A DNA stretch of 64,000 bases, taken from the NCBI GenBank assembly GCA_963727715.1, contig CAVSGX010000004.1:8455-72454 (forward strand), in the 5' to 3' direction. The position numbers were made by a program, and so were the translations under genes. The notes beneath the pieces are model-generated. The model ran no database searches. It was not told the DNA's origin and saw only the letters and a program-made list of their open reading frames with translations. Source of the stretch: an uncultured bacterium (GTDB lineage Bacteria > Patescibacteriota > Minisyncoccia > Phycocordibacterales > DATDWN01). Each line of letters begins with the position of its first letter. Positions within the stretch are counted from its first letter, which is position 1. Positions 36,655 through 58,832 of the stretch are shown one piece after another.

Positions 36655-38508
36655 TCAATGCTGTTCAGGTTTATTTTTATCAATTGTGTCGTCCACATTA
36701 AGCACTTTACGCAAAACCTCTTCCGGCACTTCTTTCCCCGACGCTGGCGCGGCTGGGGTTTGGACGATTTCTTTTTTAATTCCGGGTTTTATTTCCGTTT
36801 TTATTTCCGGTTTATTCATAACTTGAGACAGAGCATTTTTCAAACTGGAAATATTTTCCACTGTCGGATTTTTTTTATTTTCACTTGAATTCAGAGTAGA
36901 TAATGAAGCTGTTTGCGCAGTTGGAGGATTCTTATTTGAATCTACTGGTTTTCTCTGCGAAAAAGATTTGTTGCGCAAATCTTCGGTGGCTTTTATAAAA
37001 GCCAACTTATTAGGATCAGGGGTTGCAATTGTTGGAGTATTGTTCTGGTTGTTATATTTCTCTTTCTCACTGAAAGGCTTGTTAAAAATCGGACGATTGT
37101 CGACGCTTCGCTGAGGAGATGCCGGCGCAGATAAGGGCATAGGCGAAAAGCTGGAACGTCCTGTTCCTATATTTCCGTCGCCTTGCCCACCACCAGCCAT
37201 TTTGTCTCTTTGGGCCGATGTCCCCTCTTCATGCCATTTTTTTATTTCTGCCTCGACTTCGCCCCGTGGTCGGGTAAACTGTTTCCACGAGCTTTCCATA
37301 ACTTCTTTTTTGAATGAGACATCCGGCCTAGTAATCGGTGGCATAGTGACAGCTGAAAACGGCGCTGAAGAAACTTCATCGATCATCAATTTCAAATAAA
37401 TTTGGTATTTGCCAAGATTGACCAAATCTTCGGCGGTGAAAGTTGGAGCGAATTCTTTTTCCAAAACTTCAGCATCAAAAGCGCCGACTCGAAATGTGAC
37501 CATGGTGCCAACGTTGCCGAAAACGGCGTCGCGCACTTCCTCTTCCATTTGCTCAATGTACTGATGTGTGATGTTTAAACCTAATTTGTACTTGCGGGCT
37601 TCGGACAAAATGTCGGCAAAAGATTTGTTGGCGAAAGATTGAAACTCGTCCACATACAAATAAAAATTCGGCAGTTTGGCTAATTGCTCTTTGTTTTTGT
37701 CCGCTCGAGACATGGCCGCCAAGTATATTTTTGTGATAAGCATTGAACCAATGAGGTTGGCATTGCCCTCACCAACAAGCCCTTTGGACAAGTTGATGAG
37801 CAATATCTTTTTCTCATCCATAAAATCGCGAATGTCAAAAGATGATTTCGGCTGGCCGATTAAATTTCGGACAAGCGGGTTTGATGTGAATTGTCCGACT
37901 TTGTTTTGAATAGCCGGTGTGGCTTCGGCTGCGTATTTGTCGGTGTATTTGGCAAATTCCTCCGTCCAAAAAGTTTTGACCGATGGATCTTTGATGTTCT
38001 CCACCACTTTTTTGCGATACTCTTTGTCAGCTAACATTCGATTAACACCAAGAAGTGTGGCACCCGGATATTCCAAGAGCGCCAAAAGAGTGTTGTTTAA
38101 AATGTAAGCCATGCGAGCTGACCAAGCATCCACCCAGATTTTCTCAAACGTGGACATGAGGCCGTTGACCACCAGATGTCTTTTGTCCACACCAATATCT
38201 TCCAAGACATTGAAAGAAACTGGATGTTCCAAATCAAATGGCGCGAAATAAAGCACATCTTTGATGCGATTTTCCGGGATGTAATCCAGCAGTTTTTCGG
38301 CCATTGAACCGTGCGGATCTATGACGGCGATACCGTTGCCATTTTGAATATCCTGGATGGCCATATTTTCCAAAAGATTGGACTTGCCAACGCCGGTTTT
38401 GCCGATAACATAAACATGACGCAAGCGATCGCTTTCTTTGATACCAAAACGGATTTTTTTGTTGCGAGCGTCCGTTTCGGCAAAATATGTGATGGGGTTT
38501 GGGTCCAT
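36655..38508 (-). CDS. P-loop NTPase of the FtsK/HerA/TraD (type IV secretion DNA-binding domain-like) class with low-complexity Pro/Ser/Asn-rich C-terminal tail
   Basis: Walker A VIGKTGVGKSNLL, Walker B LYVDEFQSF; no TM segment; 617 aa. Confidence 0.55.
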   Translation of the reverse strand: MDPNPITYFAETDARNKKIRFGIKESDRLRHVYVIGKTGVGKSNLLENMAIQDIQNGNGIAVIDPHGSMAEKLLDYIPENRIKDVLYFAPFDLEHPVSFNVLEDIGVDKRHLVVNGLMSTFEKIWVDAWSARMAYILNNTLLALLEYPGATLLGVNRMLADKEYRKKVVENIKDPSVKTFWTEEFAKYTDKYAAEATPAIQNKVGQFTSNPLVRNLIGQPKSSFDIRDFMDEKKILLINLSKGLVGEGNANLIGSMLITKIYLAAMSRADKNKEQLAKLPNFYLYVDEFQSFANKSFADILSEARKYKLGLNITHQYIEQMEEEVRDAVFGNVGTMVTFRVGAFDAEVLEKEFAPTFTAEDLVNLGKYQIYLKLMIDEVSSAPFSAVTMPPITRPDVSFKKEVMESSWKQFTRPRGEVEAEIKKWHEEGTSAQRDKMAGGGQGDGNIGTGRSSFSPMPLSAPASPQRSVDNRPIFNKPFSEKEKYNNQNNTPTIATPDPNKLAFIKATEDLRNKSFSQRKPVDSNKNPPTAQTASLSTLNSSENKKNPTVENISSLKNALSQVMNKPEIKTEIKPGIKKEIVQTPAAPASGKEVPEEVLRKVLNVDDTIDKNKPEQH

Positions 38509-38587: not shown

Positions 38588-38672
38588 AGTAAAGAAAAAT
38601 TCAAAATTCAAAAACAAAAGAAAAAACAAATCGACAAGAGACAAGCTACCTTTTTGGAAATCACAAGAACGA
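38588..38672 (-). repeat. Conserved 3' flank downstream of the DGR VR/IMH (copy 1 of 3; other copies at 40604..40682 and 43418..43492)
   Basis: aaaattcaaaattcaaaaacaaaagaaaaaacaaatcgacaagagacaagctacctttttggaaatcacaagaac is present after all three target genes. Confidence 0.8.
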
Positions 38673-39650
38673 GCGGGAGAGGCGACCACCCAGAGGCGGA
38701 TGGGAACTGGACGGAGCATCGGCACGGACACCGAGCCGGGAACCGGCGGGGTTCCAATAGGCGCAGACGACACGAAAGGAAGATGGGGCGGTTTTGTCAG
38801 GGTTTGGCACTTTAGACCCGGGCAAAGCGGTCCAGTAGTATAGACCATCTTTCTCGTTTTTGGTGTCTATGTGCTTGCCTGTTTGTTCAAAGATTTTTCT
38901 TTGCAGGATGAGATAATCGGACAGAGTTAGAGATTGGTTCGGAGGCAAGGAGAGAAAGGTTTCAATCTTTTTGTTCAGAGTTTGTTTAAGCTCTGATTGT
39001 TGCCAGAGTTCTTGACTGTGGACTAGAACGATTCTTCTTTTTTTGTCTTCTATTACTCCTTCAAACCCGCCACCCGAGTTGAAATTGCTTCCGGTGTATG
39101 TTTCGTTGTATCCTTCCGACATTTTAGCGTTTAGGTCTGTCAGGTTTGGCAGAGTTTCCGGAATGAGCAGGATTGTGTCAAAACCGTGTTTTTCTATTTC
39201 TTCTCTGATTTGGTCAATGTTTCTTTCCCAGATGTTTTTCATCGTCTCGGAGAAGTCTTTCGGTCTGTCTATGGAGTGGGTTGTGTAAAAGGAAGTAAAG
39301 TATTCTATTTCTTTTTCAATATCTATGGTTATGGTTTCTTTCTTTTCTTCAGTGGTTGTTTTGCCGGTTTTTTCGTCTTTTGTCTCTTCGATATGTTTGT
39401 ATTCCACTTCTAGAGTTGTTGAGGATTTGCCTTCTATCTTTCTTTTGAGAGAACGGCATTGGGAGAGTGTTTCTTTGATTTTCAGGCTTAGTTCTTTCTG
39501 TTTCTCTGTATCTCCGCTCTCAATGGCTTTTAGGAGTTTATCTTTCATTTCTTCGGCCTGAGAGAGCAGGCCTTCCATTACGGTCAAGTCGGCCAGAGCT
39601 TGTTCTTTGGTTGGTGGAGAGTTTGGGATTTTGGGAGATTCGTGGGACAT
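38661..39650 (-). CDS. DGR target protein 1 (329 aa): Glu/Lys-rich coiled-coil N-terminus, conserved ligand-binding-type C-terminal domain ending in the variable repeat
   Basis: C-terminal region is shared with 40671..41660 and with the C-terminus of 43485..45512 (..YNETYTGSNFNSGGGFEGVIEDKKRRIVL..). The VR lies at the extreme 3' end, and the stop follows the IMH-like GC-rich TCGCCTCTCCCGC. Confidence 0.8.
   Translation of the reverse strand: MSHESPKIPNSPPTKEQALADLTVMEGLLSQAEEMKDKLLKAIESGDTEKQKELSLKIKETLSQCRSLKRKIEGKSSTTLEVEYKHIEETKDEKTGKTTTEEKKETITIDIEKEIEYFTSFYTTHSIDRPKDFSETMKNIWERNIDQIREEIEKHGFDTILLIPETLPNLTDLNAKMSEGYNETYTGSNFNSGGGFEGVIEDKKRRIVLVHSQELWQQSELKQTLNKKIETFLSLPPNQSLTLSDYLILQRKIFEQTGKHIDTKNEKDGLYYWTALPGSKVPNPDKTAPSSFRVVCAYWNPAGSRLGVRADAPSSSHPPLGGRLSRSFL
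38674..38771 (-). repeat. DGR variable repeat VR-1 (3' end of target gene 38661..39650)
   Basis: 98-bp match to the TR at 43081..43177; within the TR/VR alignment it differs from the TR only at template adenines (sense strand), apart from one sense-strand T-to-G difference in the IMH-proximal segment; encodes VVCAYWNPAGSRLGVRADAPSSSHPPLGGRLSR. Confidence 0.85.
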
Positions 39651-39666
39651 AATGGATGGATGATAA

Positions 39667-40347
39667 TCAGTCTAATTTTATTAATTTCTTTGTCAGAACA
39701 GGAATTTCTTTTTGAAAAAAAGTTTTGACCGAATTCCAATCAGCGTCAAAAAAGATGACCGGCTCTGGATCGCTTTCGGCATCGTCAAAATAAACCATAC
39801 TTTTCAAGATATGGTGATAGTCGTGAGCCACAGACGGATACTGTCCCGGCAATCGTCTGATAATATTTTCCAGCGGTTCCACATTTTTGGCGCACCAGTA
39901 CAAATCAAAGAAATCTCTTTTTCTGCCTCTTTGCGAGCTGGCGATTATTTTCATCACGGCCACATCCGTTTTATTCAAAATTTTGACAAAACCGTATTCC
40001 AAAAATTTTTGTTTTGGAATAAAAAACGGATAAGCGATAAAACTGATTTTGGTGTCATACAATACGCCATATAAAGTGTTTGGTTCATCAATATCCGTGC
40101 TCCAATTTTCATTGCTTGCAAAACGAGATAACAGTTTCTTTGTTATAAAACTTTTTTCTGTGGTAAAAAAATCCAAATCAACAGATTTGCGATTGCCGGC
40201 CTGCAAAGCTAAGGCGGTGCCACCGGCCAGATACCAGCCTGATTCACTCAGCCATTCTTGGGTTGATAAAAAATCCAGAGCTGTTTTGGTTGATTTGGGT
40301 AAACATGAAAAGTTGATGATATTTAATTTTGAAGTGTCAGTGTCCAT
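39667..40347 (-). CDS. Nucleotidyltransferase AbiEii/AbiGii-family toxin (DUF1814)
   Basis: WYLAGGTALALQAGNRKSVDLDFF matches the AbiEii GGTAL...R.S.DlDf signature; 226 aa. Confidence 0.7.
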   Translation of the reverse strand: MDTDTSKLNIINFSCLPKSTKTALDFLSTQEWLSESGWYLAGGTALALQAGNRKSVDLDFFTTEKSFITKKLLSRFASNENWSTDIDEPNTLYGVLYDTKISFIAYPFFIPKQKFLEYGFVKILNKTDVAVMKIIASSQRGRKRDFFDLYWCAKNVEPLENIIRRLPGQYPSVAHDYHHILKSMVYFDDAESDPEPVIFFDADWNSVKTFFQKEIPVLTKKLIKLD

Positions 40348-40603
40348 AATGCTTTTGTTCTTGGTCTCAAAGACCGTGATGCAGAAACAACTTTTCTCAA
40401 CAATGCCTTGTCATAAAAATTCCAAAGCCAGCGAACCTCATTATCCCTGCCAAAATCTAAAATTCTCTCAATTATATATTGAGCGTTTTTTTCAGTGTCA
40501 ATTCTGCTGACATCGGTGTCCCAAAACAAAGATTGTCTAAATGGCATACCTTCATTATATCAAATTTTGAGACAATATTCAACAAAAATCAAAATGCAAA
40601 AAT

Positions 40604-40682
40604 AAAAAATTCAAAATTCAAAAACAAAAGAAAAAACAAATCGACAAGAGACAAGCTACCTTTTTGGAAATCACAAGAACGA
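40604..40682 (-). repeat. Conserved 3' flank downstream of the DGR VR/IMH (copy 2 of 3)
   Basis: Same 3'-flank repeat family as 38588..38672 and 43418..43492 (aaaattcaaaattcaaaaacaaaagaaaaaacaaatcgacaagagacaagctacctttttggaaatcacaagaac); lies immediately downstream (minus-strand sense) of target 2 and its VR/IMH. Confidence 0.8.
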
Positions 40683-41660
40683 GCGGGAGAGGCGACCACC
40701 CAGAGGCGGATTGGAAATGGACGGATCATTGGCAACGACATTGAGCTGGGAACCGTCGGGGTACCAATGGGCGCAGACGACACGAAAGGAAGATGGGGCG
40801 GTTTTGTCAGGGTTTGGCACTTTAGACCCGGGCAAAGCGGTCCAGTAGTATAGACCATCTTTCTCGTTTTTGGTGTCTATGTGCTTGCCTGTTTGTTCAA
40901 AGATTTTTCTTTGCAGGATGAGATAATCGGACAGAGTTAGAGATTGGTTCGGAGGCAAGGAGAGAAAGGTTTCAATCTTTTTGTTCAGAGTTTGTTTAAG
41001 CTCTGATTGTTGCCAGAGTTCTTGACTGTGGACTAGAACGATTCTTCTTTTTTTGTCTTCTATTACTCCTTCAAACCCGCCACCCGAGTTGAAATTGCTT
41101 CCGGTGTATGTTTCGTTGTATCCTTCCGACATTTTAGCGTTTAGGTCTGTCAGGTTTGGCAGAGTTTCCGGAATGAGCAGGATTGTGTCAAAACCGTGTT
41201 TTTCTATTTCTTCTCTGATTTGGTCAATGTTTCTTTCCCAGATGTTTTTCATCGTCTCGGAGAAGTCTTTCGGTCTGTCTATGGAGTGGGTTGTGTAAAA
41301 GGAAGTAAAGTATTCTATTTCTTTTTCAATATCTATGGTTATGGTTTCTTTCTTTTCTTCAGTGGTTGTTTTGCCGGTTTTTTCGTCTTTTGTCTCTTCG
41401 ATATGTTTGTATTCCACTTCTAGAGTTGTTGAGGATTTGCCTTCTATCTTTCTTTTGAGAGAACGGCATTGGGAGAGTGTTTCTTTGATTTTCAGGCTTA
41501 GTTCTTTCTGTTTCTCTGTATCTCCGCTCTCAATGGCTTTTAGGAGTTTATCTTTCATTTCTTCGGCCTGAGAGAGCAGGCCTTCCATTACGGTCAAGTC
41601 GGCCAGAGCTTGTTCTTTGGTTGGTGGAGAGTTTGGGATTTTGGGAGATTCGTGGGACAT
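40671..41660 (-). CDS. DGR target protein 2 (329 aa); recent paralogous duplicate of target 1
   Basis: Protein is identical to target 1 except within the VR-encoded tail. About 1.07 kb of DNA (40604-41670 vs 38588-39660) is near-identical outside the VR. Confidence 0.8.
   Translation of the reverse strand: MSHESPKIPNSPPTKEQALADLTVMEGLLSQAEEMKDKLLKAIESGDTEKQKELSLKIKETLSQCRSLKRKIEGKSSTTLEVEYKHIEETKDEKTGKTTTEEKKETITIDIEKEIEYFTSFYTTHSIDRPKDFSETMKNIWERNIDQIREEIEKHGFDTILLIPETLPNLTDLNAKMSEGYNETYTGSNFNSGGGFEGVIEDKKRRIVLVHSQELWQQSELKQTLNKKIETFLSLPPNQSLTLSDYLILQRKIFEQTGKHIDTKNEKDGLYYWTALPGSKVPNPDKTAPSSFRVVCAHWYPDGSQLNVVANDPSISNPPLGGRLSRSFL
40684..40781 (-). repeat. DGR variable repeat VR-2 (3' end of target gene 40671..41660)
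   Basis: Encodes VVCAHWYPDGSQLNVVANDPSISNPPLGGRLSR. Within the TR/VR alignment all differences from the TR are at template adenines (sense strand), apart from one sense-strand T-to-G difference in the IMH-proximal segment. Confidence 0.85.
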
Positions 41661-41672
41661 GGAAGTATTCTA

Positions 41673-42700
41673 TCATGTTATAACAATATCATTCAATATT
41701 GAAGTCAGTTTGTTTTTTAATCCAAATGAATCGCAGTGTTTCAGTAAAGCAAAATAAGACTGAAAATTATTCTTGTTCATTCTTTCAAAAATTTTTTGCT
41801 TGGTTTTATCTCTCAATAAAAGACAATCTGGCAAAGTCAGAGATCCTAGAAAATCTACTCCCCATTTTAATTTTCTGATTGAGATTTTATCATCCGGGAT
41901 TTGCAGAAACAGTTTTGCCATAAATTTTTTAATTTCAACCAAACAAAACCCCAATCTTTTTTTATTTTTATTTACCAAAATAAAATCGTCGTTGTATCTT
42001 ATATAAAATCTGGCGTTTAATTTTTTCTTCACAAAATGGTCAAAATCGTTCAAATAAATGTTGGCGAAAATCTGGCTGGTGATGTTGCCGAGCGGGATGC
42101 TTTTGTCAGAGCCATGAAGCGAGCAAAAACTTTCTACTATTTTCCCCACTTCCAAAAAAATATTTTCATTTTTCACTTTTCTTTTGATAAATTTCAGCAG
42201 TAGGCGGTGGTTGACACTTTCAAAGTATTTTTTGACATCGCATTTTAAAATAAAAACATCCCCATTTTTTCTTTTCGCCAATCCATTGAAATATTGGAGA
42301 GTTTTGACGGCTTTATGCGTTCCTTTTCCGTCTCTGGATGAATAACGGCTTTATGCGTTCCTTTTCCGTCTCTGGATGAATATGAGTCGGCAATAAATGC
42401 CGGCTCAAATAGATTTTTCAAATAATCGGATATTATTTGATGAATAATTCTATCTTTAACTTCAGCTTTGTGAATATTTCTTTTCTTGTTGTCAGTAACA
42501 ATAAAATGCGAATACCCGCCATGGCGGTAAGTTTTGTTTTTCAGATCTCTGTGCAAATCAAAAATATTGTCTTCCAAATGTCTTTCAAAAATCATTACAT
42601 CCATCTTGGAGGACTTTCCCCGCCGAAATTTCCGCCAAGCTGAAAATATATTATCAAGACTGAATAATTCGTTATAATTTTTATGGAACAAGACGCTCAT
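41673..42700 (-). pseudogene. DGR reverse transcriptase, reading frame broken by a 38-bp tandem duplication (ORF track pieces 42245..43024 and 41673..42281)
   Basis: N-terminal piece: LFSLDNIFSAWRKFRRGKSSKMDVMIFERHLEDNIFDLHRDLKNKTYRHGGYSHFIVTDNKKRNIHKAEVKDRIIHQIISDYL...DSYSSRDGKGTHKAV (DGR-RT motifs 1-2). C-terminal piece: ILKCDVKKYFESVNH, IPLGNITSQIFANIYLNDFD, YIRYNDDFIL (YxDD). Deleting one copy of the 38-bp unit fuses the two pieces in frame to ...GKGTHKAVKTLQYFNGLAKRKNGDVFILKCDVKKYF.... Confidence 0.85.
42307..42382. repeat. Perfect 38-bp direct tandem duplication (2 copies) inside the RT gene
   Basis: acggctttatgcgttccttttccgtctctggatgaata occurs twice in tandem; 38 is not divisible by 3, so this is a frameshift. 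Confidence 0.9.
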
Positions 42701-43057
42701 AAAATTGAAAAATTGGAAATGCCTATTATGGCCAAACTCTTTATCATTTACGAACTGACGCACAAGCTTATTTTCAAATTGCCGAAATTTGAAAGATACA
42801 CTTTGGGTGAAAAAATTGAAAATATCATCTTGGAAACGATTGAAATAATTGTCATCGCCAATGGGACGAACAAATACGAAAAAGAAAAATATTTGCTCAA
42901 AGCCAATGCCAAAGTGGAAATGCTTAAGTTGCTTTTTCGCATCGTTTTGAACTGCCAAATCATTGATTTCAAAAAATATTTGGAGGCGGAAGGGTTGCTT
43001 CAAGAAATCGGCAAAATGGCGCAAGGTTGGATAAAATACACCAGAAACGCAAAATAG
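42683..43057 (+). CDS. avd: Avd (accessory variability determinant; four-helix-bundle protein, bAvd/23S-rRNA-IVP family), transcribed divergently from the RT; likely start at Met 42719
   Basis: KLFIIYELTHKLIFKLPKFERYTLGEKIENIILETIEIIVIANG...LLKANAKVEMLKLLFRIVLNCQII...EAEGLLQEIGKMAQGWIKY matches the four-helix-bundle family pattern (FPK.E.Y.L..Q..R...SI..NIAEG......f...A.GS..El...l..a..l.yi......l......igkml.gli). The antisense strand here gives only a Phe-rich nonsense extension of the RT ORF. Confidence 0.7.
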   Translation: MEQDAHKIEKLEMPIMAKLFIIYELTHKLIFKLPKFERYTLGEKIENIILETIEIIVIANGTNKYEKEKYLLKANAKVEMLKLLFRIVLNCQIIDFKKYLEAEGLLQEIGKMAQGWIKYTRNAK

Positions 43058-43080
43058 CTTTTGTATAAAGCAAGAACGGC

Positions 43081-43177
43081 GGGAGAGGCGACAACCCAGA
43101 TTCGGATTGGAATTGGACGGATCATTGGCATTGACATTGAGCTGGGAATTGTCGGGGTTCCAATTGGCGCAGACGAC
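43081..43177 (-). repeat. DGR template repeat (TR), noncoding, between the VR-bearing main target gene and avd/RT
   Basis: Sense strand reads ..VVCA NWNPDNSQLNVNANDPSNSNPNLGCRLSR with 9 AAT (Asn) codons and no in-frame stop context. IMH*-like end TCGCCTCTCCCGCCGTTCTTGC differs from the VR IMH ends (..CCCGCTCGTTCTTGTGA). Confidence 0.85.
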
Positions 43178-43417
43178 TGCGGTCGCCCCTCGATTAGCTT
43201 TGCGTCGTCATTTCCGTTTGGAAACAAGACTCTATTTATTAGGGGCTACTTCCCCCTGACGCAAAACTGCTGTTCTTGTGTTTTATTTCCACAAATCAAC
43301 GACTATTTGGTTTCTAAAATTCAGAAACCATCTTTCGCCGTCAATTAGCGCTTCGGCAAACCAACTCATCACTGATGGCTTACGAGCCGAAGCGGGCGAT
43401 TTTTGCTTCGCAAAAAT

Positions 43418-43492
43418 AAAAAATTCAAAATTCAAAAACAAAAGAAAAAACAAATCGACAAGAGACAAGCTACCTTTTTGGAAATCACAAGA
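43418..43492 (-). repeat. Conserved 3' flank downstream of the DGR VR/IMH (copy 3 of 3)
   Basis: Same 3'-flank repeat family as 38588..38672 and 40604..40682 (aaaattcaaaattcaaaaacaaaagaaaaaacaaatcgacaagagacaagctacctttttggaaatcacaagaac); lies immediately downstream (minus-strand sense) of the main AAA+ target and its VR/IMH. Confidence 0.8.
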
Positions 43493-45512
43493 ACGAGCGG
43501 GAGAGGCGACAACCCAGATTCGGATAGGAATAGGACGGATCATCGGCACCGACAACGAGCTGGGAATAGCCGGGGTCCCAATGGGCGCAGACGACGCGGA
43601 AACCGCCGGATGGATTTTTGACTGTTGAGCCGGGTAGCCATGTCCAACCGTCTTCATCCAAATGTTTGCCTGTTTGTTCAAAATATTGCTTTTGATACAA
43701 CAAATAATCTGTCAGAGACATTTTTTCACCTTGCGATATAAACTCCTCGGCTTTTTTATTCAGAGTTTTCTTCAGTTCCGAATGGTCTTTCAGATTTTGA
43801 GCGCTGTTTTTATGAATCAAAACGATTCTTCTTTTTTTGTCTTCTATTACTCCTTCAAACCCGCCACCCGAGTCGAAATTGCTTCCGGTGTATGTTTCGT
43901 TGTATCCTTCTGACATTTTTTTATGTATATCGGTTATGGTCAATCCTCCGGGCACAAGCAAAATCTCATCAAAACCATATTTTTCTACTTCTTGTTTTAT
44001 CTCGTCATAATTGTTCACCCATATATCCGCCATTTCTTCCGCAAATGATTCCGTCAATTCAATTTCGTGAGCTTTATAAAAAAGAAGAGAATCCTCAAGT
44101 TTTTTGTCAAAATTTATTTCTATTTTCTCTTTCTTTTCTTTGCCTTTCTCGTCCACGATTTTGTGTTCGGCAGAAACCACCGGTTCAAACGAACTGCCGG
44201 TCAATTCTCTTCTTTTACTTCTGAAAAATTTCTCCAAATCGGCTATTTCATTTTCAATCTTCTCTATCCCGTCCGCCGGACTTTCGGTTTTACCACCTTC
44301 AGGAATTGCCTCAGCAGACGCTTCTTTTTCTTCTTCGTTATTTTTCTTTTTTCTTTTCGTTCCTTTGCGTTTGGAATCTTTGGTTTCTATTTTGACTTCA
44401 ACCAATCGGATGATTTCTTCCAATTTTGTTCTGTCTTCGGCGCTTTCCAGTCTGTTGACATAATAATATTTCAGGGCTTTTTGAAAAGTTTCGCTGATGT
44501 CGCCATTGTAAAAACGCAAAACAAAATTTCTGACCCGCCTCGGCTCTTCGCGGTCGTCATAGGTGAAAACTTGTGGTTGATCTTCGGCGATTTGCCTGTT
44601 TTTCAAAAGTTCTTTGGCGGTTTTGTGAAATTCCTTGTATTTTTCCAAAATTTCGGCAATGCCTGGAATTTCCGAAAGTTGTTCCTGCGTCAAACCACCG
44701 GCGCCGGATAAAAACATATCATCAGGCAATTCGGCGGTTTTCTTTTCCAAACCGTTCTCTAAACCAAACAATGCACCAGTCGCTTGCTTAAAGGTCTCTT
44801 CCGGTAATTCATTTGGCATTTTTTTATAAACCCATCTGCGAAGCTGAGCTGGATCAAGTGGCTTTCTATCCAAATAACCGGCTCCCGGAGGATTCATAAA
44901 AGCGATGATTTTGGTTTTTTGTTTAGAAACTTTAACTGTTTCCGAAGCGTCTTCTGACAAAATGACATCGCTATCACGCTCCAGAGAATCCAAAACTTCA
45001 TGCAAACGAATCAAAATGTTCGGCGCCGATGAGTTGAATTCGTCCAAAACAATAATTTTGACTTTACCGTCTTCCTGTCGTAAACCGCTAGTTACTTTTC
45101 CGTCGGCGAAAATGTATTCCGGGTCTTCCGCATTATTTTTACGAGGATTTGGTATATATCGGCCCATCAAATCCTCCACATCCGTGGCACCGTTTAAGTT
45201 TATGTAATGAACTTCGTAGCCGAGCTCACTGGCCATTTTTCGCACCGTGGTGGTCTTACCAAAAGATGTTCCGCTTTCCACGGCAATAGGGTCGCCCATG
45301 GAAAACGACACGGCGATGTCACGTTGCAGTGGCAGAGCCACTTCGGTATCATTGGTGTAGTCCTTGTAATTTTCTCTTCTTGGCACAAATTGGCCATTTC
45401 TGTTTTTAGCTTTTTCCAGAGTAACACCCATATAAGAAACACTCCCGTCAGTTTCCATTATCGGCTCCAGTTTTGCTTCCGGATTGTTAAATTGTCCTTC
45501 TGGTGTTTTCAT
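43485..45512 (-). CDS. DGR main target: AAA_5/MoxR-type AAA+ ATPase fused to a long acidic linker and the conserved DGR-diversified C-terminal domain (675 aa)
   Basis: Walker A VESGTSFGKTT, Walker B KIIVLDEFN, sensor region ..IIAFMNPPGAGYLDRKPLDPAQLRRW. The C-terminal 170 aa is homologous to targets 1 and 2 and ends in VR-3. No signal peptide or TM segment. Confidence 0.85.
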   Translation of the reverse strand: MKTPEGQFNNPEAKLEPIMETDGSVSYMGVTLEKAKNRNGQFVPRRENYKDYTNDTEVALPLQRDIAVSFSMGDPIAVESGTSFGKTTTVRKMASELGYEVHYINLNGATDVEDLMGRYIPNPRKNNAEDPEYIFADGKVTSGLRQEDGKVKIIVLDEFNSSAPNILIRLHEVLDSLERDSDVILSEDASETVKVSKQKTKIIAFMNPPGAGYLDRKPLDPAQLRRWVYKKMPNELPEETFKQATGALFGLENGLEKKTAELPDDMFLSGAGGLTQEQLSEIPGIAEILEKYKEFHKTAKELLKNRQIAEDQPQVFTYDDREEPRRVRNFVLRFYNGDISETFQKALKYYYVNRLESAEDRTKLEEIIRLVEVKIETKDSKRKGTKRKKKNNEEEKEASAEAIPEGGKTESPADGIEKIENEIADLEKFFRSKRRELTGSSFEPVVSAEHKIVDEKGKEKKEKIEINFDKKLEDSLLFYKAHEIELTESFAEEMADIWVNNYDEIKQEVEKYGFDEILLVPGGLTITDIHKKMSEGYNETYTGSNFDSGGGFEGVIEDKKRRIVLIHKNSAQNLKDHSELKKTLNKKAEEFISQGEKMSLTDYLLYQKQYFEQTGKHLDEDGWTWLPGSTVKNPSGGFRVVCAHWDPGYSQLVVGADDPSYSYPNLGCRLSRSFL
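43496..43593 (-). repeat. DGR variable repeat VR-3 (3' end of the AAA+ target gene)
   Basis: Encodes VVCAHWDPGYSQLVVGADDPSYSYPNLGCRLSR. It differs from the TR at 12 positions, all corresponding to TR adenines. Confidence 0.85.
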
Positions 45513-45956: not shown

Positions 45957-48242
45957 TCAACCAACAACTTCTTTCTCAAGTATTTCTGATATATCTTTTA
46001 TTATTTTGTCCACTTTTATATTATCGGATTTTAGCGGGTAATAAATAAGCTTTACACCGCCGGCTTTTTCGATTTTGCCTTTAATTTTTTGAAAATCATA
46101 TTTTGAGCCGGGATGTTTAGTGGATTCAGCTGGTCTGTCATCCGAAAAAACAATCATTATTTTGTTGTCTGTTTTTTGTTTTGCAAGTCTTGCCGAAGCG
46201 GTTTCCATAGCCCAACCAATGTCGGTTTCATTATGCTCATTTCCGCAATTTTTGCAACAACTATCTTCAACCTCTTTAAACATTCCTCCCATGTGTTCCC
46301 TGATTTTTTTTGACATTGGCTCTCCAAATTTTTGATACTCGTATATATCATCATTAAAACCGTTAATTTCAACGTTCAATCCTAGTTTGTTTAATGCTTC
46401 AGCCAGCACAACTTTTGCTTTGAAATCTTCTTCAATTTTTTTACGCATAGAACCAGATAAATCGTTTAGAATGGAAATTGAATATTCTTTTTCATCTGGT
46501 TTTTCTCTTTTTTGCCAAGCGTTGCTTTCTATTGGCGAAATGCGTCTGGCTTTTTCCTGAATCCTTGTTTTTATATCAATTCTTTTGCCTATTCTAAAGC
46601 CCTTTTTCCATCTTGTGGTTTGGGTGTCAACAAATATCTGTCTTAGTTTATTTTCCAATTCATCAATCAGCGACGAAACTTCTCGTCGGTGCTTTTCATA
46701 AATATTTTCGTCTTTATTGACTTCTCTTTTTAATCTTTCTTTGTATATTCTCAATCCTTCCAAATCAAGAGGTTCTTTTCTTAAAGTTCCGGTTCTGACC
46801 GGAGCGCCGCCTTGATTTTGATTGTTTATTTCAACCCCTGGCAAATTTTCCGGCGGTTCTGGATTTTTTCTTTCTGCTTTTTCCTCCGGATTTTCAGTCA
46901 ATTTGCCTTCCATTTCTTCGTTTAGTTTGTCTTCAAATTCCTTCAGCGCTTTTTCGGCTCTGTCGGCCAGCTCTTTTTTCACATCTTCCGGAAGCGAGTC
47001 GACATAATCCCTTATTTTTTGTTTTATTTCGTCGGAAAGGTCGTTCAGGTTTATTGTCCTCGCACCGATATCGTCTAGCGTCTGTGGTTGTTCATTGCCG
47101 GTGTTGTCTTCGTGTGGAGTCGGCTTGTTTGTGATTTTATCTTCTCCCTGCCCACCTGTTGACATTGGTTTGATTTTTTCTTTCTCTTTTTTTGCTTCAT
47201 CAATAGCTTTGTCAATAGCATTTTCCAACGTTTTCTTTTCTTCTTCGGTTAATTTGTCTTCCAAATCTTTTGGCAGTTTTGATTTTTTTTCATTTTTTTT
47301 ATCTTCACTTTCTCCTTCCTGATTTCCGTTATCTTTTTGTCCATCACCACCTTCCTTCCCATTTTCTCTTTCTTGCTCTTTTTTCATTTCTTCCATCATC
47401 TTTTTCATCACATCTTTCAACACTTCTTCCATTTTCTCATCCTCTTTATCTGCTTCAACCAGTTTTTTAAATTCTGGCCAAATTTCTTCCAGATTTATTT
47501 CATACGACACTTTGGCGTATTCTTTTATTTTTTCTTCACTTTCATCCGCTTCCTCTCGCGACGGATATCGCCACCAAGAATCCTGAGCTGATTTCAGTGT
47601 GGCTAAAACAACAGCTTTGACTTCTTCGGGCAAATCTTCCGAAATTTCAAAATTCTGTCCCTGTTTTTCACGAAACCATTGTCTAATATATTCATACCCC
47701 GCTTGCACAAAACGCGGTTGGAAACCCAGTTTTTCGGTAGCTTCTTTCTTTTCTTTTTCTCTTTTGGCAAAAAAATCATCCCAAGCAAATTTTATATTTT
47801 CATCGTATTTCGGATAACTCTCGGAAACAAAGTTGTCGTTTCTGGGATCTTCAATGAAATTCATCATAGCTGAAAAGCCCGGTTGTCGCCATGTTTCAAT
47901 CGGAATAAAATCTGTTCTGGAAACTCGTCTATGTCCTCCTTCGTGACAAATTAAATATCTCAATAATTCAATTGGCTCCGTCAGCAGAGTTTTCGGGTCA
48001 ACTCTGATGACATTTTTTTGAAAATCCCAATGCCAGCCAGCGCCTGGTTGGTTTAGTTCTATCGGCATCTCAAAATCTTTGCCAATAAAATAAGCCAGAG
48101 ATGACAAAATATTTTTCTTGCGCAGAATTTCTTTTTGTTCTTCTTCGTTAAATCGCTTCAAGATTTCCTCTTCTGGATTTTGCCGGAGAGAATCGTAGGT
48201 TTGTTCGTTTTGATTGAATTTTGGTCCTTCCATAATTTGCAA
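45957..48242 (-). CDS. Putative zinc metallopeptidase (HExxH) N-domain, Glu/Lys-rich low-complexity linker and C-terminal VWA (MIDAS) domain; DUF2201-like AAA-partner architecture
   Basis: LICHEGGHRRVS (HExxH); central 300 aa of E/K-rich repeats; C-terminal ..ISILNDLSGSMRKK.. (DxSxS MIDAS) ...IMIVFSDDRPAEST... Confidence 0.75.
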   Translation of the reverse strand: MQIMEGPKFNQNEQTYDSLRQNPEEEILKRFNEEEQKEILRKKNILSSLAYFIGKDFEMPIELNQPGAGWHWDFQKNVIRVDPKTLLTEPIELLRYLICHEGGHRRVSRTDFIPIETWRQPGFSAMMNFIEDPRNDNFVSESYPKYDENIKFAWDDFFAKREKEKKEATEKLGFQPRFVQAGYEYIRQWFREKQGQNFEISEDLPEEVKAVVLATLKSAQDSWWRYPSREEADESEEKIKEYAKVSYEINLEEIWPEFKKLVEADKEDEKMEEVLKDVMKKMMEEMKKEQERENGKEGGDGQKDNGNQEGESEDKKNEKKSKLPKDLEDKLTEEEKKTLENAIDKAIDEAKKEKEKIKPMSTGGQGEDKITNKPTPHEDNTGNEQPQTLDDIGARTINLNDLSDEIKQKIRDYVDSLPEDVKKELADRAEKALKEFEDKLNEEMEGKLTENPEEKAERKNPEPPENLPGVEINNQNQGGAPVRTGTLRKEPLDLEGLRIYKERLKREVNKDENIYEKHRREVSSLIDELENKLRQIFVDTQTTRWKKGFRIGKRIDIKTRIQEKARRISPIESNAWQKREKPDEKEYSISILNDLSGSMRKKIEEDFKAKVVLAEALNKLGLNVEINGFNDDIYEYQKFGEPMSKKIREHMGGMFKEVEDSCCKNCGNEHNETDIGWAMETASARLAKQKTDNKIMIVFSDDRPAESTKHPGSKYDFQKIKGKIEKAGGVKLIYYPLKSDNIKVDKIIKDISEILEKEVVG

Positions 48243-55605: not shown

Positions 55606-56425
55606 GGATCTCCCAGGGTCATTTATATTTCTGTTCCAAACATCCGAATCGAGATTTTCGATAAGATTTATCGTGTGCTTCCTTCTGACTCACCGCAGAA
55701 GTCGCACATCTCTTTTTTTTGATTCGGCTGCTCTTTGCTACTAGGATCCTTCAGTCCAGTCATTGCTGATTGTGGACCTACCCGTTCGCTATTTTCACAC
55801 TCCTGTGAAAAGTTGGATTTGAACCAACTAGATATATAAACTGCCTGGCGCATTTTATTCTGAGTACAAGACTTGAGAACGTATTCACCGCGGTATGTCT
55901 GACCCGCGATTACTAGCAATTCCAACTTCATGGGGTCGAGTTTCAGCCCCCAATCTGAACTGGGGCGACTTTTCTAAGGATTGGCTCAGGGTTACCCCGT
56001 CGCAACCTGTTGTAGTCGCCATTGTATTATGTGTGTAGCCCAAGGTATCAAAGGGACATGCTGATCTGGCGTCATCCTCGCCTTCCTCCCAGCTCCAGTT
56101 GCGCAAGATGAACGAACTCGGTTAAGACCGAATACGGACATCGATGTTTGCACAGAGAGACATCTACTTATGATGTTCTTGTGCAACTGGAGCTGGGCAG
56201 TCTCGCCTGATACTTATAACAGACAACGAGGGTTGCGTTCGTTACCCCACTTAAGGGAACAATTCAAATCACGAACTGACGACGACCATGCATCACCTGC
56301 CTAACTGTCCTTGTGGGACCGCAAACGTTTCTGCTTGCATTCAGTTAGGTTTCAAACCTTGGTAAGATTCTTCGTTTATCATCGAATTAAACCACATAAT
56401 CCACTGCTTGTGCAAGTCCCCGTCT

Positions 56426-56457
<32 letters not shown>

Positions 56458-56641
56458 ACCCAGGCGCTTGACTTAACGCGTTAGCTACGCCACGCAGAGG
56501 GTCGATACTCCGCATAGCTAGTCAAGATCGTTTAGGGCGTGGACTACTGGGGTCTTAATGTTACTTCAAAATTTTGGGAAATTTTGAGGCACAACATTTC
56601 TGTTGTACTCTGCATGTTGCCATGCAGTTCGGACTATATCT

Positions 56642-57403
56642 TTATCTGTATGTATTCCACTTAGCTTTTTTCTTTTCATATTCTGCTATTATGACAGATT
56701 CTGAAAAATTACTAAGAGAAACCATTTCAGATATCCAGCGTTCTTGAAATTGAGAGTTTTTATATAGAAGAATTGCTTTGGATAACATGCTCGATACTGG
56801 TATGTATGGCAGTATGATACGCAAGAATTTTTTTAATTCTTCTTGTGACCTAATCCATAACCGCCAGTATTGTTCTTGCTTCCCATCTTGCTTACGCCCG
56901 ACGGGGGCAACAATGGCACGAACATCCCAAACAACTTTAAGATAGCGAGCTAGCATTTCGACTGATTGTTTTGAAAAACCATCAGTACAAAACACACCTT
57001 TTCTGGCGCCGTAACCAATAAGCGAACCGTCATCACACCACCAAACGGCGAGTGATAACGCTGTCATTTGATTAAGCCACCTACGCTCTATAAGCAATTT
57101 ATTTTGTTTGTGAGTTAAATGATGAAGTTCTGTAAGAGATGAAGTTCGCCTACTGGCAAATCTCCATTTTTTGTTCTTACTGTATCCATCAGGTTCCTGC
57201 ACAAACACACTGCTATCTCCTGCTATCTCTTTGAGAGCTTGCGCTTTCCATAAGAGATAATCTTTCTGCATTTCCGAATGACGAATTTGTAAATTCGCAT
57301 TGAAATAATTTTTTTGGATTTTTAGCGAGCCGTCTCCAAGGATTGAACCGAAGATAATAGCTTTCGCTTCATCCGACAAAGGCACATATTTCGTATCATG
57401 CAT
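56642..57403 (-). CDS. LAGLIDADG-family homing endonuclease (double-motif) encoded within 16S intron 1
   Basis: IIFGSILGDGSL and LAVWWCDDGSL are two LAGLIDADG motifs; 253 aa. Confidence 0.85.
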   Translation of the reverse strand: MHDTKYVPLSDEAKAIIFGSILGDGSLKIQKNYFNANLQIRHSEMQKDYLLWKAQALKEIAGDSSVFVQEPDGYSKNKKWRFASRRTSSLTELHHLTHKQNKLLIERRWLNQMTALSLAVWWCDDGSLIGYGARKGVFCTDGFSKQSVEMLARYLKVVWDVRAIVAPVGRKQDGKQEQYWRLWIRSQEELKKFLRIILPYIPVSSMLSKAILLYKNSQFQERWISEMVSLSNFSESVIIAEYEKKKAKWNTYR

Positions 57404-57480
57404 ATAATTTTAAGTTAATTGCACGACGACAGAATAGCACCAACTATCTTACTCAATTTCATAGTCTCTACGGGGTTTCT

Positions 57481-57702
57481 AGCACTAATTTTTGGAGTCA
57501 AGCTTTGACTTGACAAGATTCATTTTATGATTTAACATCAATTCCAGGAGATTAACTCGATGGAATTTATTATGATATTGATCTGTTTAGGAGTTTTTTG
57601 TTTGATCACAGATATGATGATAACTGTTGCTATTGATATCTGTGAATGGATCGATCATTACCTGCACCGGCTTTTATAGCGGTGCAGTTTTCTTTTTCCA
57701 AA
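57481..57702 (+). mobile_element. Second copy of the TIR cassette (same AGCACTAATTTTTGGAGTCAAG terminal repeat), inside 16S intron 1 and antisense to the rRNA
   Basis: TTGACA (57510) -N17- TAACAT, AGGAG (57546), ATG 57560, terminator ctgcaccgg-cttttatag-ccggtgcag followed by a T-run; the interior differs from copy 1. Confidence 0.6.
57560..57679 (+). CDS. Small hydrophobic peptide (39 aa) MEFIMILICLGVFCLITDMMITVAIDICEWIDHYLHRLL
   Basis: RBS AGGAG 10 nt upstream; one TM helix plus a short polar tail; same cassette architecture as 55427..55534. Confidence 0.5.
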   Translation: MEFIMILICLGVFCLITDMMITVAIDICEWIDHYLHRLL

Positions 57703-58832
57703 AATTAGTGCTAGAAACTTCCCTCGGGGTTGTCCATACGAAATCAGTAAATTTCATATTGTATGGAGTTTCCCCGATATAGCTAGATTACAATTCTATG
57801 TCACCATAGAAAAGAGACACCTTCGTCCTATATTTTATTAGCGGGACTGGATTATCTAATCCCATTCGCTACCCACGCTTTCGTGTTTCAGTGTCAGGAG
57901 TGGCCCAATGTGCTGCCTTCGCTTTCGGTGTTCCCCATGATATCAACGGATTTCACCCCTACTCCATGAGTTCCACACATCCCTGCCATCCTCTAGTCGT
58001 GCCGTTTCGCTCGCACTTCCGGGGTTAAGCCCCGGGTTTTAACAAGCGACTAACACAACCACCTACACACCCTTTACGCCCAATAATTCCGGATAACGCT
58101 CGGGGCACTCGTATTACCGCTGCTGCTGGCACGAGTTTAGCAACCCCTTATTCTTGAGGTACTATCAATAAACTTTCTCCCTCACAAAAGATGTTTACGA
58201 CCCAGAGGGTCTTCATCCATCACGCGGCGTCGCTCGATCAGGCTTTCGCCCATTGTCGAATATTCTCGGCTGCTGCCACCCGTAGGTGTATGGACCGTCT
58301 CTCAGTTCCATCGGTGGGGGCCAAGCTCTCACTCCCCCTACGCGTCATAGCCTTGGTAGGCCGTTACCCTACCAACTAGCTGATACGACGCAGACTTTTC
58401 CTTTAGCGATAAATCTTTCCTCCGAAGAGAATATCAAGTATTACCTAATCTTTCGACTAGCTATTCCTGACTAAAGGGTAAATCTCTGCGCATTATTACC
58501 TCGTTCGCCACTGTCCTTGCGGACCGTTTGACTTGCATGCCTTATCCACGCCGCCAGCGTTCATCCTGAGCTAGGATCAAACTCTTAATAAAGATTTATT
58601 AAGATCTATCTTTTAAGAACGGAACAAAATAAAGGAAAATACTTTTGGTATCGCGATTATTTTATTTTTCTTTGATGAACACTGATTGTGTTTTTGGTTG
58701 ATTGTTATTGATGTTGTGAATTTTGCTGAATTCACTTTCCGGAATTATTTTAAAAGAATATTTTGCATCCGACTGTTTTTGACAAAACAGCCGAACTGTA
58801 AAACTTGCACGTTTTACATTCTCTAAATAAAG

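Follow-up and report, generated by a model that had tools for sequence, protein, structure and literature searches.

A perfect 38-bp tandem duplication interrupts the reverse transcriptase gene of an otherwise intact DGR in a Patescibacteria population

Introduction

Diversity-generating retroelements (DGRs) whose reverse transcriptase (RT) has been freshly inactivated by a nonsense mutation, an IS insertion or a frameshift, with clean template repeat (TR) and variable repeat (VR) sequences, have been on record for some time, an example from the DiGReF survey being the frameshifted RT of Bacteroides sp. 9_1_42FAA; very recent inactivation was inferred for such elements, with sequencing error raised as an alternative (Schillinger et al., 2012; PMC3521204). 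Given these reports from 2012, a frameshifted DGR RT is in itself unsurprising. Cellular DGRs restricted to Patescibacteria are likewise a recognised group, DGR clade 2 of Roux et al. (2021; PMC8144416), and the RT of the Bordetella phage BPP-1 (bRT) is available in solved structures with Avd (PDB 8ub7-8ube). A different kind of precedent is offered by contingency loci and simple sequence repeat (SSR) phase variation, where changes in the copy number of a repeat shift a reading frame.

Here we describe a DGR in a window of 64,000 nucleotides (the whole stretch of DNA analysed) whose RT gene is split by two identical, adjacent copies of a 38-nt unit. Like the inactivated DGRs of Schillinger et al. 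(2012), it has an RT truncated by a single lesion, TR/VR differences confined to adenines, and no accumulation of other substitutions; unlike them, it owes its interruption to a perfect 38-bp tandem duplication rather than to a point frameshift, nonsense mutation or IS insertion, the presence of the lesion in raw reads is backed by an independent assembly, and the host is an uncultivated Patescibacteria MAG carrying three VRs. With other Patescibacteria/CPR DGRs it shares an avd gene, an RT gene and multiple chromosomal targets, and it differs from them in that the RT is broken. The repaired RT resembles BPP-1 bRT in a match over residues 6-290, in the (I/L)GxxxSQ motif and in a YxDD-type motif 5, whereas sequence similarity is moderate, motif 5 reads YNDD here and YMDD there, avd lies on the opposite strand, and the host is cellular and not a phage. 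As in contingency loci, the copy-number change shifts the frame and exact reversion is possible in principle; in contrast to them, the unit is 38 nt long and present in two copies instead of forming a microsatellite tract of 1-8 nt units, there is no recurrence in relatives, and nothing points to elevated switching. A frameshifted DGR RT is therefore a known kind of object, and what is specific to this one is a perfect 38-bp duplication that the exact loss of one copy would undo. We consider it quite probable that this duplication is a genuine and very recent inactivating mutation in the sampled Patescibacteria population, and we set out below the evidence for this reading along with the alternatives.

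The DGR and its targets

The components of the element other than the RT gene are as follows (window coordinates).

38673..38771, minus strand: VR1, at the 3' end of a 329-aa target (38661-39650), with 15 substitutions at TR adenines and one T>G
39667..40547, minus strand: DUF6922 and AbiEii-like gene pair between the two paralogous targets, an order kept in relatives
40683..40781, minus strand: VR2, at the 3' end of a 329-aa target (40671-41660), with nine substitutions at TR adenines and one T>G
42683..43057, plus strand: avd (accessory variability determinant), divergent from the RT gene; Pfam bAvd, E=1.4e-17, above cutoff
43079..43177, minus strand: TR, a 99-nt core with 22 adenines on the coding strand and rich in AAY codons
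43497..43595, minus strand: VR3, at the 3' end of a 675-aa AAA_5 target (43485-45512), with 11 substitutions, all at TR adenines

Together with an RT of DGR type bearing the SQ motif, for which we took the (I/L/V)GxxxSQ form of motif 4 from Schillinger et al. (2012; PMC3521204), these components give the locus the anatomy of a DGR: an Avd protein, adenine-specific differences between TR and VRs, VRs at the 3' ends of their targets, and AAY codons. Read in the target frame, the TR runs ...AAT TGG AAC ... AAT ..., and the one difference between TR and VRs that does not involve an adenine is a single T>G common to VR1 and VR2, near the GC-rich 3' end CTGGGT(G/T)GTCGCCTCTCCCGC that TR and VRs have in common. 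As regards an IMH, a 3' recognition element that the VR has and the TR lacks, sequence comparison showed about 75 nt of downstream flank common to the three VRs and absent at the TR. The stop codons of all three target ORFs come 12 nt after the end of the VR. The Avd protein also matches the NCBIfam model DivGenRetAVD (E=5e-19), with a score of 68.5 bits that falls under the model's 80-bit equivalog cutoff; its true start is likely to be M16, at 42728, giving 109 aa as in relatives (106-109 aa).

The orientation of avd, divergent from the RT gene, recurs in 43 of 80 related loci and is the commonest arrangement in this RT clade. Since avd lies antisense between TR and RT, a transcript running from TR to RT would be antisense to all of avd; and since its likely start, M16 at 42728, is some 25 bp from the RT start at 42700, its promoter has to be located within the RT gene. 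The third target (43485-45512, minus strand; 675 aa) has an N-terminal AAA_5 (dynein-related ATPase) domain and a C-terminal module in common with the 329-aa targets (98% DNA identity over 99 nt, 43821-43919), and a syntenic AAA_5 target of 917 aa is present in one relative.

The two paralogous targets bear on the age of DGR activity. Over 1056 bp (38595-39650 and 40605-41660) they are 100% identical save for 12 positions, all inside the VR; the 1056-bp repeat ends exactly at the target start codon. A very recent gene duplication as the source of this pair was rejected, as the same arrangement is found in a relative whose target is 53% identical. That relative has an RT 63% identical to the one described here, intact and 327 aa long, with avd on the opposite strand and a gene order of AAA_5 target, avd, RT, a 318-aa target, DUF6922/AbiEii and a second 318-aa target, its AbiEii gene product being 74% identical. 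This makes the paralogue pair an old one, and the identity of the two genes within the genome is best explained by homogenisation through gene conversion (concerted evolution). The VRs diverged after the last such homogenisation, and so the DGR was active very recently; the RT lesion would be younger still. In that relative the target copies (contig positions 2701-3712 and 4647-5658) are all identical, VR included, which is probably a repeat collapse in its MAG.

Apart from its RT gene, then, the DGR is intact and recently active.

An interrupted reverse transcriptase gene

The gene and its repeat occupy the following positions.

41673..42700, minus strand: DGR RT gene, frameshifted; N-terminal ORF from 42700 to 42245, repaired product 329 aa
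42307..42344, minus strand: 38-nt unit, copy A, read second on the coding strand; its C-terminal frame encodes YSSRDGKGTHKAV
42345..42382, minus strand: 38-nt unit, copy B, read first on the coding strand, in the N-terminal frame

From an ATG at 42700, the N-terminal ORF (151 aa) keeps to the RT frame as far as the end of the first-read copy (42382-42345), with the sequence ...DSYSSRDGKGTHKAV; in the second-read copy it is out of frame, and it terminates at a TAA at 42247-42245. What remains of the gene is open in a different frame as far as a stop at 41673-41675, and in that frame copy B contains a TAA (42351-42353, given on the plus strand). When one copy of the unit is removed in silico, a single ORF of 329 aa results, in which DSYSSRDGKGTHKAV is joined directly to KTLQYFNGLAKRKNGDVFILKCDVKKYF.

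The two copies, spanning 42307-42382, are identical and head to tail, as detected by TRF (period 38, 2.0 copies, 100% matches, score 152) and confirmed by direct string comparison. The unit is ACGGCTTTATGCGTTCCTTTTCCGTCTCTGGATGAATA and the junction between the units is the 20-mer GGATGAATAACGGCTTTATG. With a G before the repeat and a T after it (flanks GTTTTG on one side and TGAGTC on the other), and an A at both ends of the unit, the repeat cannot be extended into its flanks, so that there are exactly 2.0 copies and zero junction microhomology. Chance would supply a perfect 38-nt tandem repeat in 64 kb with an expectation of 64000 x 4^-38, or about 1e-18, and the 64-kb window holds no other perfect tandem duplication of period greater than 12. 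Slippage duplications devoid of junction microhomology are unusual; a search around the repeat for microhomology or local structure that might explain its origin gave none, only weak, unrelated short repeats and palindromes being found nearby.

The repaired product behaves as one protein. It gives a single unbroken match to Pfam RVT_1 (residues 71-273, E=2.2e-22), aligns across the junction without a gap to 17 intact homologues (51-68% identity), and keeps all 80 invariant columns of the resulting 18-sequence alignment, including K113, G114, A118 and Y124 near the junction as well as LGNITSQ (motif 4) and RYNDD. Its best match among solved structures is the Bordetella phage DGR RT 8ub7 (E=6e-28), continuous across the junction, and the peptide of the duplicated segment, YSSRDGKGTHKAV, belongs to the conserved fingers region, aligning to bRT 107-YACRPDKGTHAGV-119. 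The closest homologues come almost entirely from Patescibacteria MAGs. The fragments fare poorly by themselves: the N-terminal ORF has no Pfam match, and the C-terminal ORF, which is without motifs 1-2, matches only RVT_1 positions 62-202. The gap-free alignment of the repaired RT and the poor matches of its fragments argue that the single-copy state is ancestral and the duplication the only visible defect. The preliminary description of this DNA had identified the gene as a DGR RT split into two ORFs by a perfect 38-bp tandem duplication, and had proposed that removing one copy restores an intact RT with homologue-like spacing; the domain match, the LGNITSQ and RYNDD motifs, the structural match, the ORF coordinates and frames, the repeat analysis and the gap-free alignment all uphold that account, and the in silico junction is exactly as it was written there.

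The probable course of events is that one 38-bp segment was duplicated head to tail and that the extra 38 nt put the downstream part of the gene out of frame (+2). A protein translated from the RT start would then consist of 118 native and 33 out-of-frame residues, and with this early termination motifs 3-7 and the catalytic YNDD would not be made in the same protein. Cells with two copies would no longer make cDNA through this DGR, and their three VRs would be frozen at their current sequences. An active DGR requires a full-length RT, and the two-copy locus, with its frameshift of +38 nt, does not encode one; by descent and anatomy the locus is a DGR, predicted from its sequence to be inactive in the two-copy allele, where RT activity is presumably lost. 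Complementation in trans by an RT encoded elsewhere in the genome is conceivable; the 64-kb window holds no second RT that might provide it. As everything else in the element is intact, the lesion is likely to be young; and as the copies are identical and adjacent, the exact loss of one of them would restore the wild-type gene, which should make the duplication reversible.

Could the gene nonetheless be functional as it stands, through programmed frameshifting (+1/-2), transcriptional slippage, stop recoding, or the assembly of two polypeptides? Both frames are open for about 100 nt (42350-42248), the N-terminal ORF ends in a UUU-UAA context, and there are A4 and A6 runs in the overlap region, all of which might be seen as opportunities for such a rescue. 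Yet in a shifted product either 13 aa of the conserved fingers region would be present twice, or 25-32 junk residues would stand in for the segment that holds the invariant Y124 and L139. UGA is recoded in some CPR lineages, but the blocking stops here are TAA. The internal TTG of the C-terminal ORF has nothing resembling a Shine-Dalgarno sequence upstream of it, and the RT is encoded in a single frame in all 17 aligned homologues and in 78 of the 80 related loci. We regard rescue of the interrupted gene as barely conceivable.

The duplication in the reads

A perfect repeat in a deposited contig may also arise in the course of assembly or curation, by concatenation of unmerged contig ends overlapping by 38 nt or by an error in gap closing. 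Several features of the locus invite this explanation: 38 nt is k-1 when k is 39, a setting often included in assembler k-lists; there are exactly 2.0 copies and no microhomology; the duplication sits no more than about 25 bp from the centre of a 1.4-kb unique segment (between the end of the paralogue repeat at 41660 and the TR start at 43079); and the locus is rich in repeats. What speaks against it comes from an independent assembly of the same population, the Logan contigs of run ERR11594402, which we reached via neighbouring proteins. This run may be the MAG's own read set, in which case the comparison is with an independent assembly and not with an independent sample.

Logan contigs derive from 31-mer unitigs from which singleton k-mers are dropped, followed by a SPAdes-like graph cleaning (Minia3), and all 31-mers within them are distinct by construction (PMC12424806). 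A k=31 de Bruijn graph was accordingly simulated from the window alone, in its two-copy and its one-copy form. The two-copy graph predicts a unitig at 42353-43439, 1087 bp long, whereas the one-copy graph predicts a single unitig of 1771 bp that spans the site. The Logan contig covering this region corresponds to window positions 42353-43439, is 1087 bp long and 100% identical, and begins exactly k-1, or 30 nt, short of the end of the second copy. A branch arises at its start only if the 31-mers ...GGATGAATA+A, leading into the second unit, and ...GGATGAATA+T are both present in the reads. Two control contigs follow the simulation as well, one having exactly the length of its predicted 1005-bp unitig (39621-40625 in the simulation) and the other ending, as predicted, at 38624, 30 nt inside the 1056-bp repeat. 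Unpredicted breaks are rare in these contigs, at about one in the 35 kb of the predicted unitig to which the latter contig (16.5 kb) belongs and within which it stops early, so that an accidental break at this exact nucleotide would have a probability of the order of 1e-4. For the left-hand Logan contig (predicted at 41631-42336, 706 bp), neither the 220-aa edge-truncated product to be expected nor any other form of its product gave a match in look-ups, probably because genes are not called on contigs below 1 kb or because of the 5'-5' overlap with avd.

Since the Logan boundaries match the two-copy prediction, the junction k-mers must be present two or more times in the reads, and the duplication is present in the raw data. 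An assembly artefact, which the preliminary description had listed among its possibilities, is hard to reconcile with contig boundaries that fit two copies (1087 against 1771 bp) at both ends and in two controls, and we hold it to be extremely unlikely. The very recent inactivating mutation, also raised there, is the reading that we favour, with the two-copy junction in the reads and the rest of the DGR intact. For users of this genome, its broken DGR would accordingly be real biology and not a misassembly, and it provides a clean natural case of young DGR inactivation, with a single lesion and no decay elsewhere.

One or two alleles in the population

Recent inactivation does not oblige all cells to carry the lesion, and a polymorphic population, in which one-copy cells with an active RT coexist with two-copy cells lacking one and the assembly shows the commoner allele, is not mutually exclusive with it. 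Such a mixture is possible, if rather doubtful on present evidence. A perfect duplication should be young, which makes incomplete fixation plausible, and VR1 and VR2 differ only at adenine sites in otherwise identical genes, a sign of very recent DGR activity. The Logan data agree equally well with either state: with a k-mer length of 31, shorter than the 38-nt unit, no 31-mer is specific to the single-copy allele, so that a one-copy subpopulation would be invisible and a mixture would give the same k=31 graph topology as a population made up of two-copy cells only.

Against a mixture, no intact or junction-spanning one-copy product was met with in a collection of about 15 billion proteins. 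The repaired, single-copy RT had no match there; the collection represents this RT solely by its C-terminal fragment, whose source is one NCBI/ENA contig of 204,555 bp, and the best intact homologue there is only 68% identical. Nor did the single-copy DNA version find an exact match in genome contigs (0) or in viral contigs (0). By protein look-ups the population was found in one run only. In addition, the deposited contig has two copies, and where an indel bubble occurs, assemblers with k above 40 would normally retain whichever branch has the better coverage; with the junction path also kept by Minia, this suggests that the two-copy allele is substantial and probably the major one. The two-copy form is thus most likely the majority allele, and the three hypervariable surface/ATPase-linked targets are probably frozen in the dominant genotype. 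Should the population prove polymorphic, it would offer a natural comparison of VR diversity with and without RT in an uncultivated CPR bacterium, VR2 and VR3 being 1.6 kb and 1.1 kb distant from the RT allele.

Related loci and a possible switch

Perfect adjacent repeats are prone to deletion, and it might be asked whether gain and loss of the 38-bp copy serve as a selected, reversible ON/OFF switch that toggles the DGR mutator within the population. If so, cells would be able to fix receptor variants that prove useful and to return to diversification at a later time, by precise deletion. The exact restoration of the wild-type gene by loss of one copy and the intactness of the remainder of the DGR are what such a switch would need. 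The relatives give it little encouragement: a tandem duplication was present in the RT of none of the 80 related loci (91 kb screened), and with no RT tandem duplication of period 10 or more among them, the locus does not qualify as a phase-variable contingency locus and gives no sign of a recurrent switch. The two relatives with damaged RTs carry a small indel and a truncation, respectively, and not a duplication, and the site itself is without flanking repeats or structure that would favour recurrent duplication. No literature precedent for a duplication-based DGR switch was found. We judge a selected switch to be highly unlikely and continue to prefer a recent inactivating mutation, reversible in principle.

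The RT is uninterrupted in 78 of the 80 related loci, which come from reference genomes. In the other two, the damage consists of a small-indel frameshift (contig L029, about positions 1740-1768) and a truncation after about residue 163 (contig L053, 30-518), which puts the background of disrupted RTs in the clade at roughly 2-3%.

Other features of the window and of related loci

The DGR cassette is flanked on one side by a gene for a VirD4/TrwB-like type IV coupling protein (36655-38508, minus strand) and on the other by a gene for a large protein with VWA and CobT_C domains (45957-48242, minus strand), which adjoins the AAA_5 target; a mobile-element or surface-apparatus context is possible.

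The window also contains a split 16S rRNA gene (55812-58592, minus strand), with Rfam matches at 55812-56668 and 57762-58592 separated by an insertion of about 1.1 kb, in which lies an ORF for a 253-aa LAGLIDADG_2 homing endonuclease (56642-57403, Pfam E=5e-32). Interrupted 16S genes with insertions of this LAGLIDADG kind are typical of CPR bacteria.

Finally, three Saccharibacteria DGR loci among the relatives have (CT)n tracts 40-90 nt upstream of the RT start, located at about position 365 (at least ~20 nt; L034), about 2933 (about 28 nt; L036) and about 2915 (about 44 nt; L038) of their contigs, which could be a regulatory or slippage-prone element.
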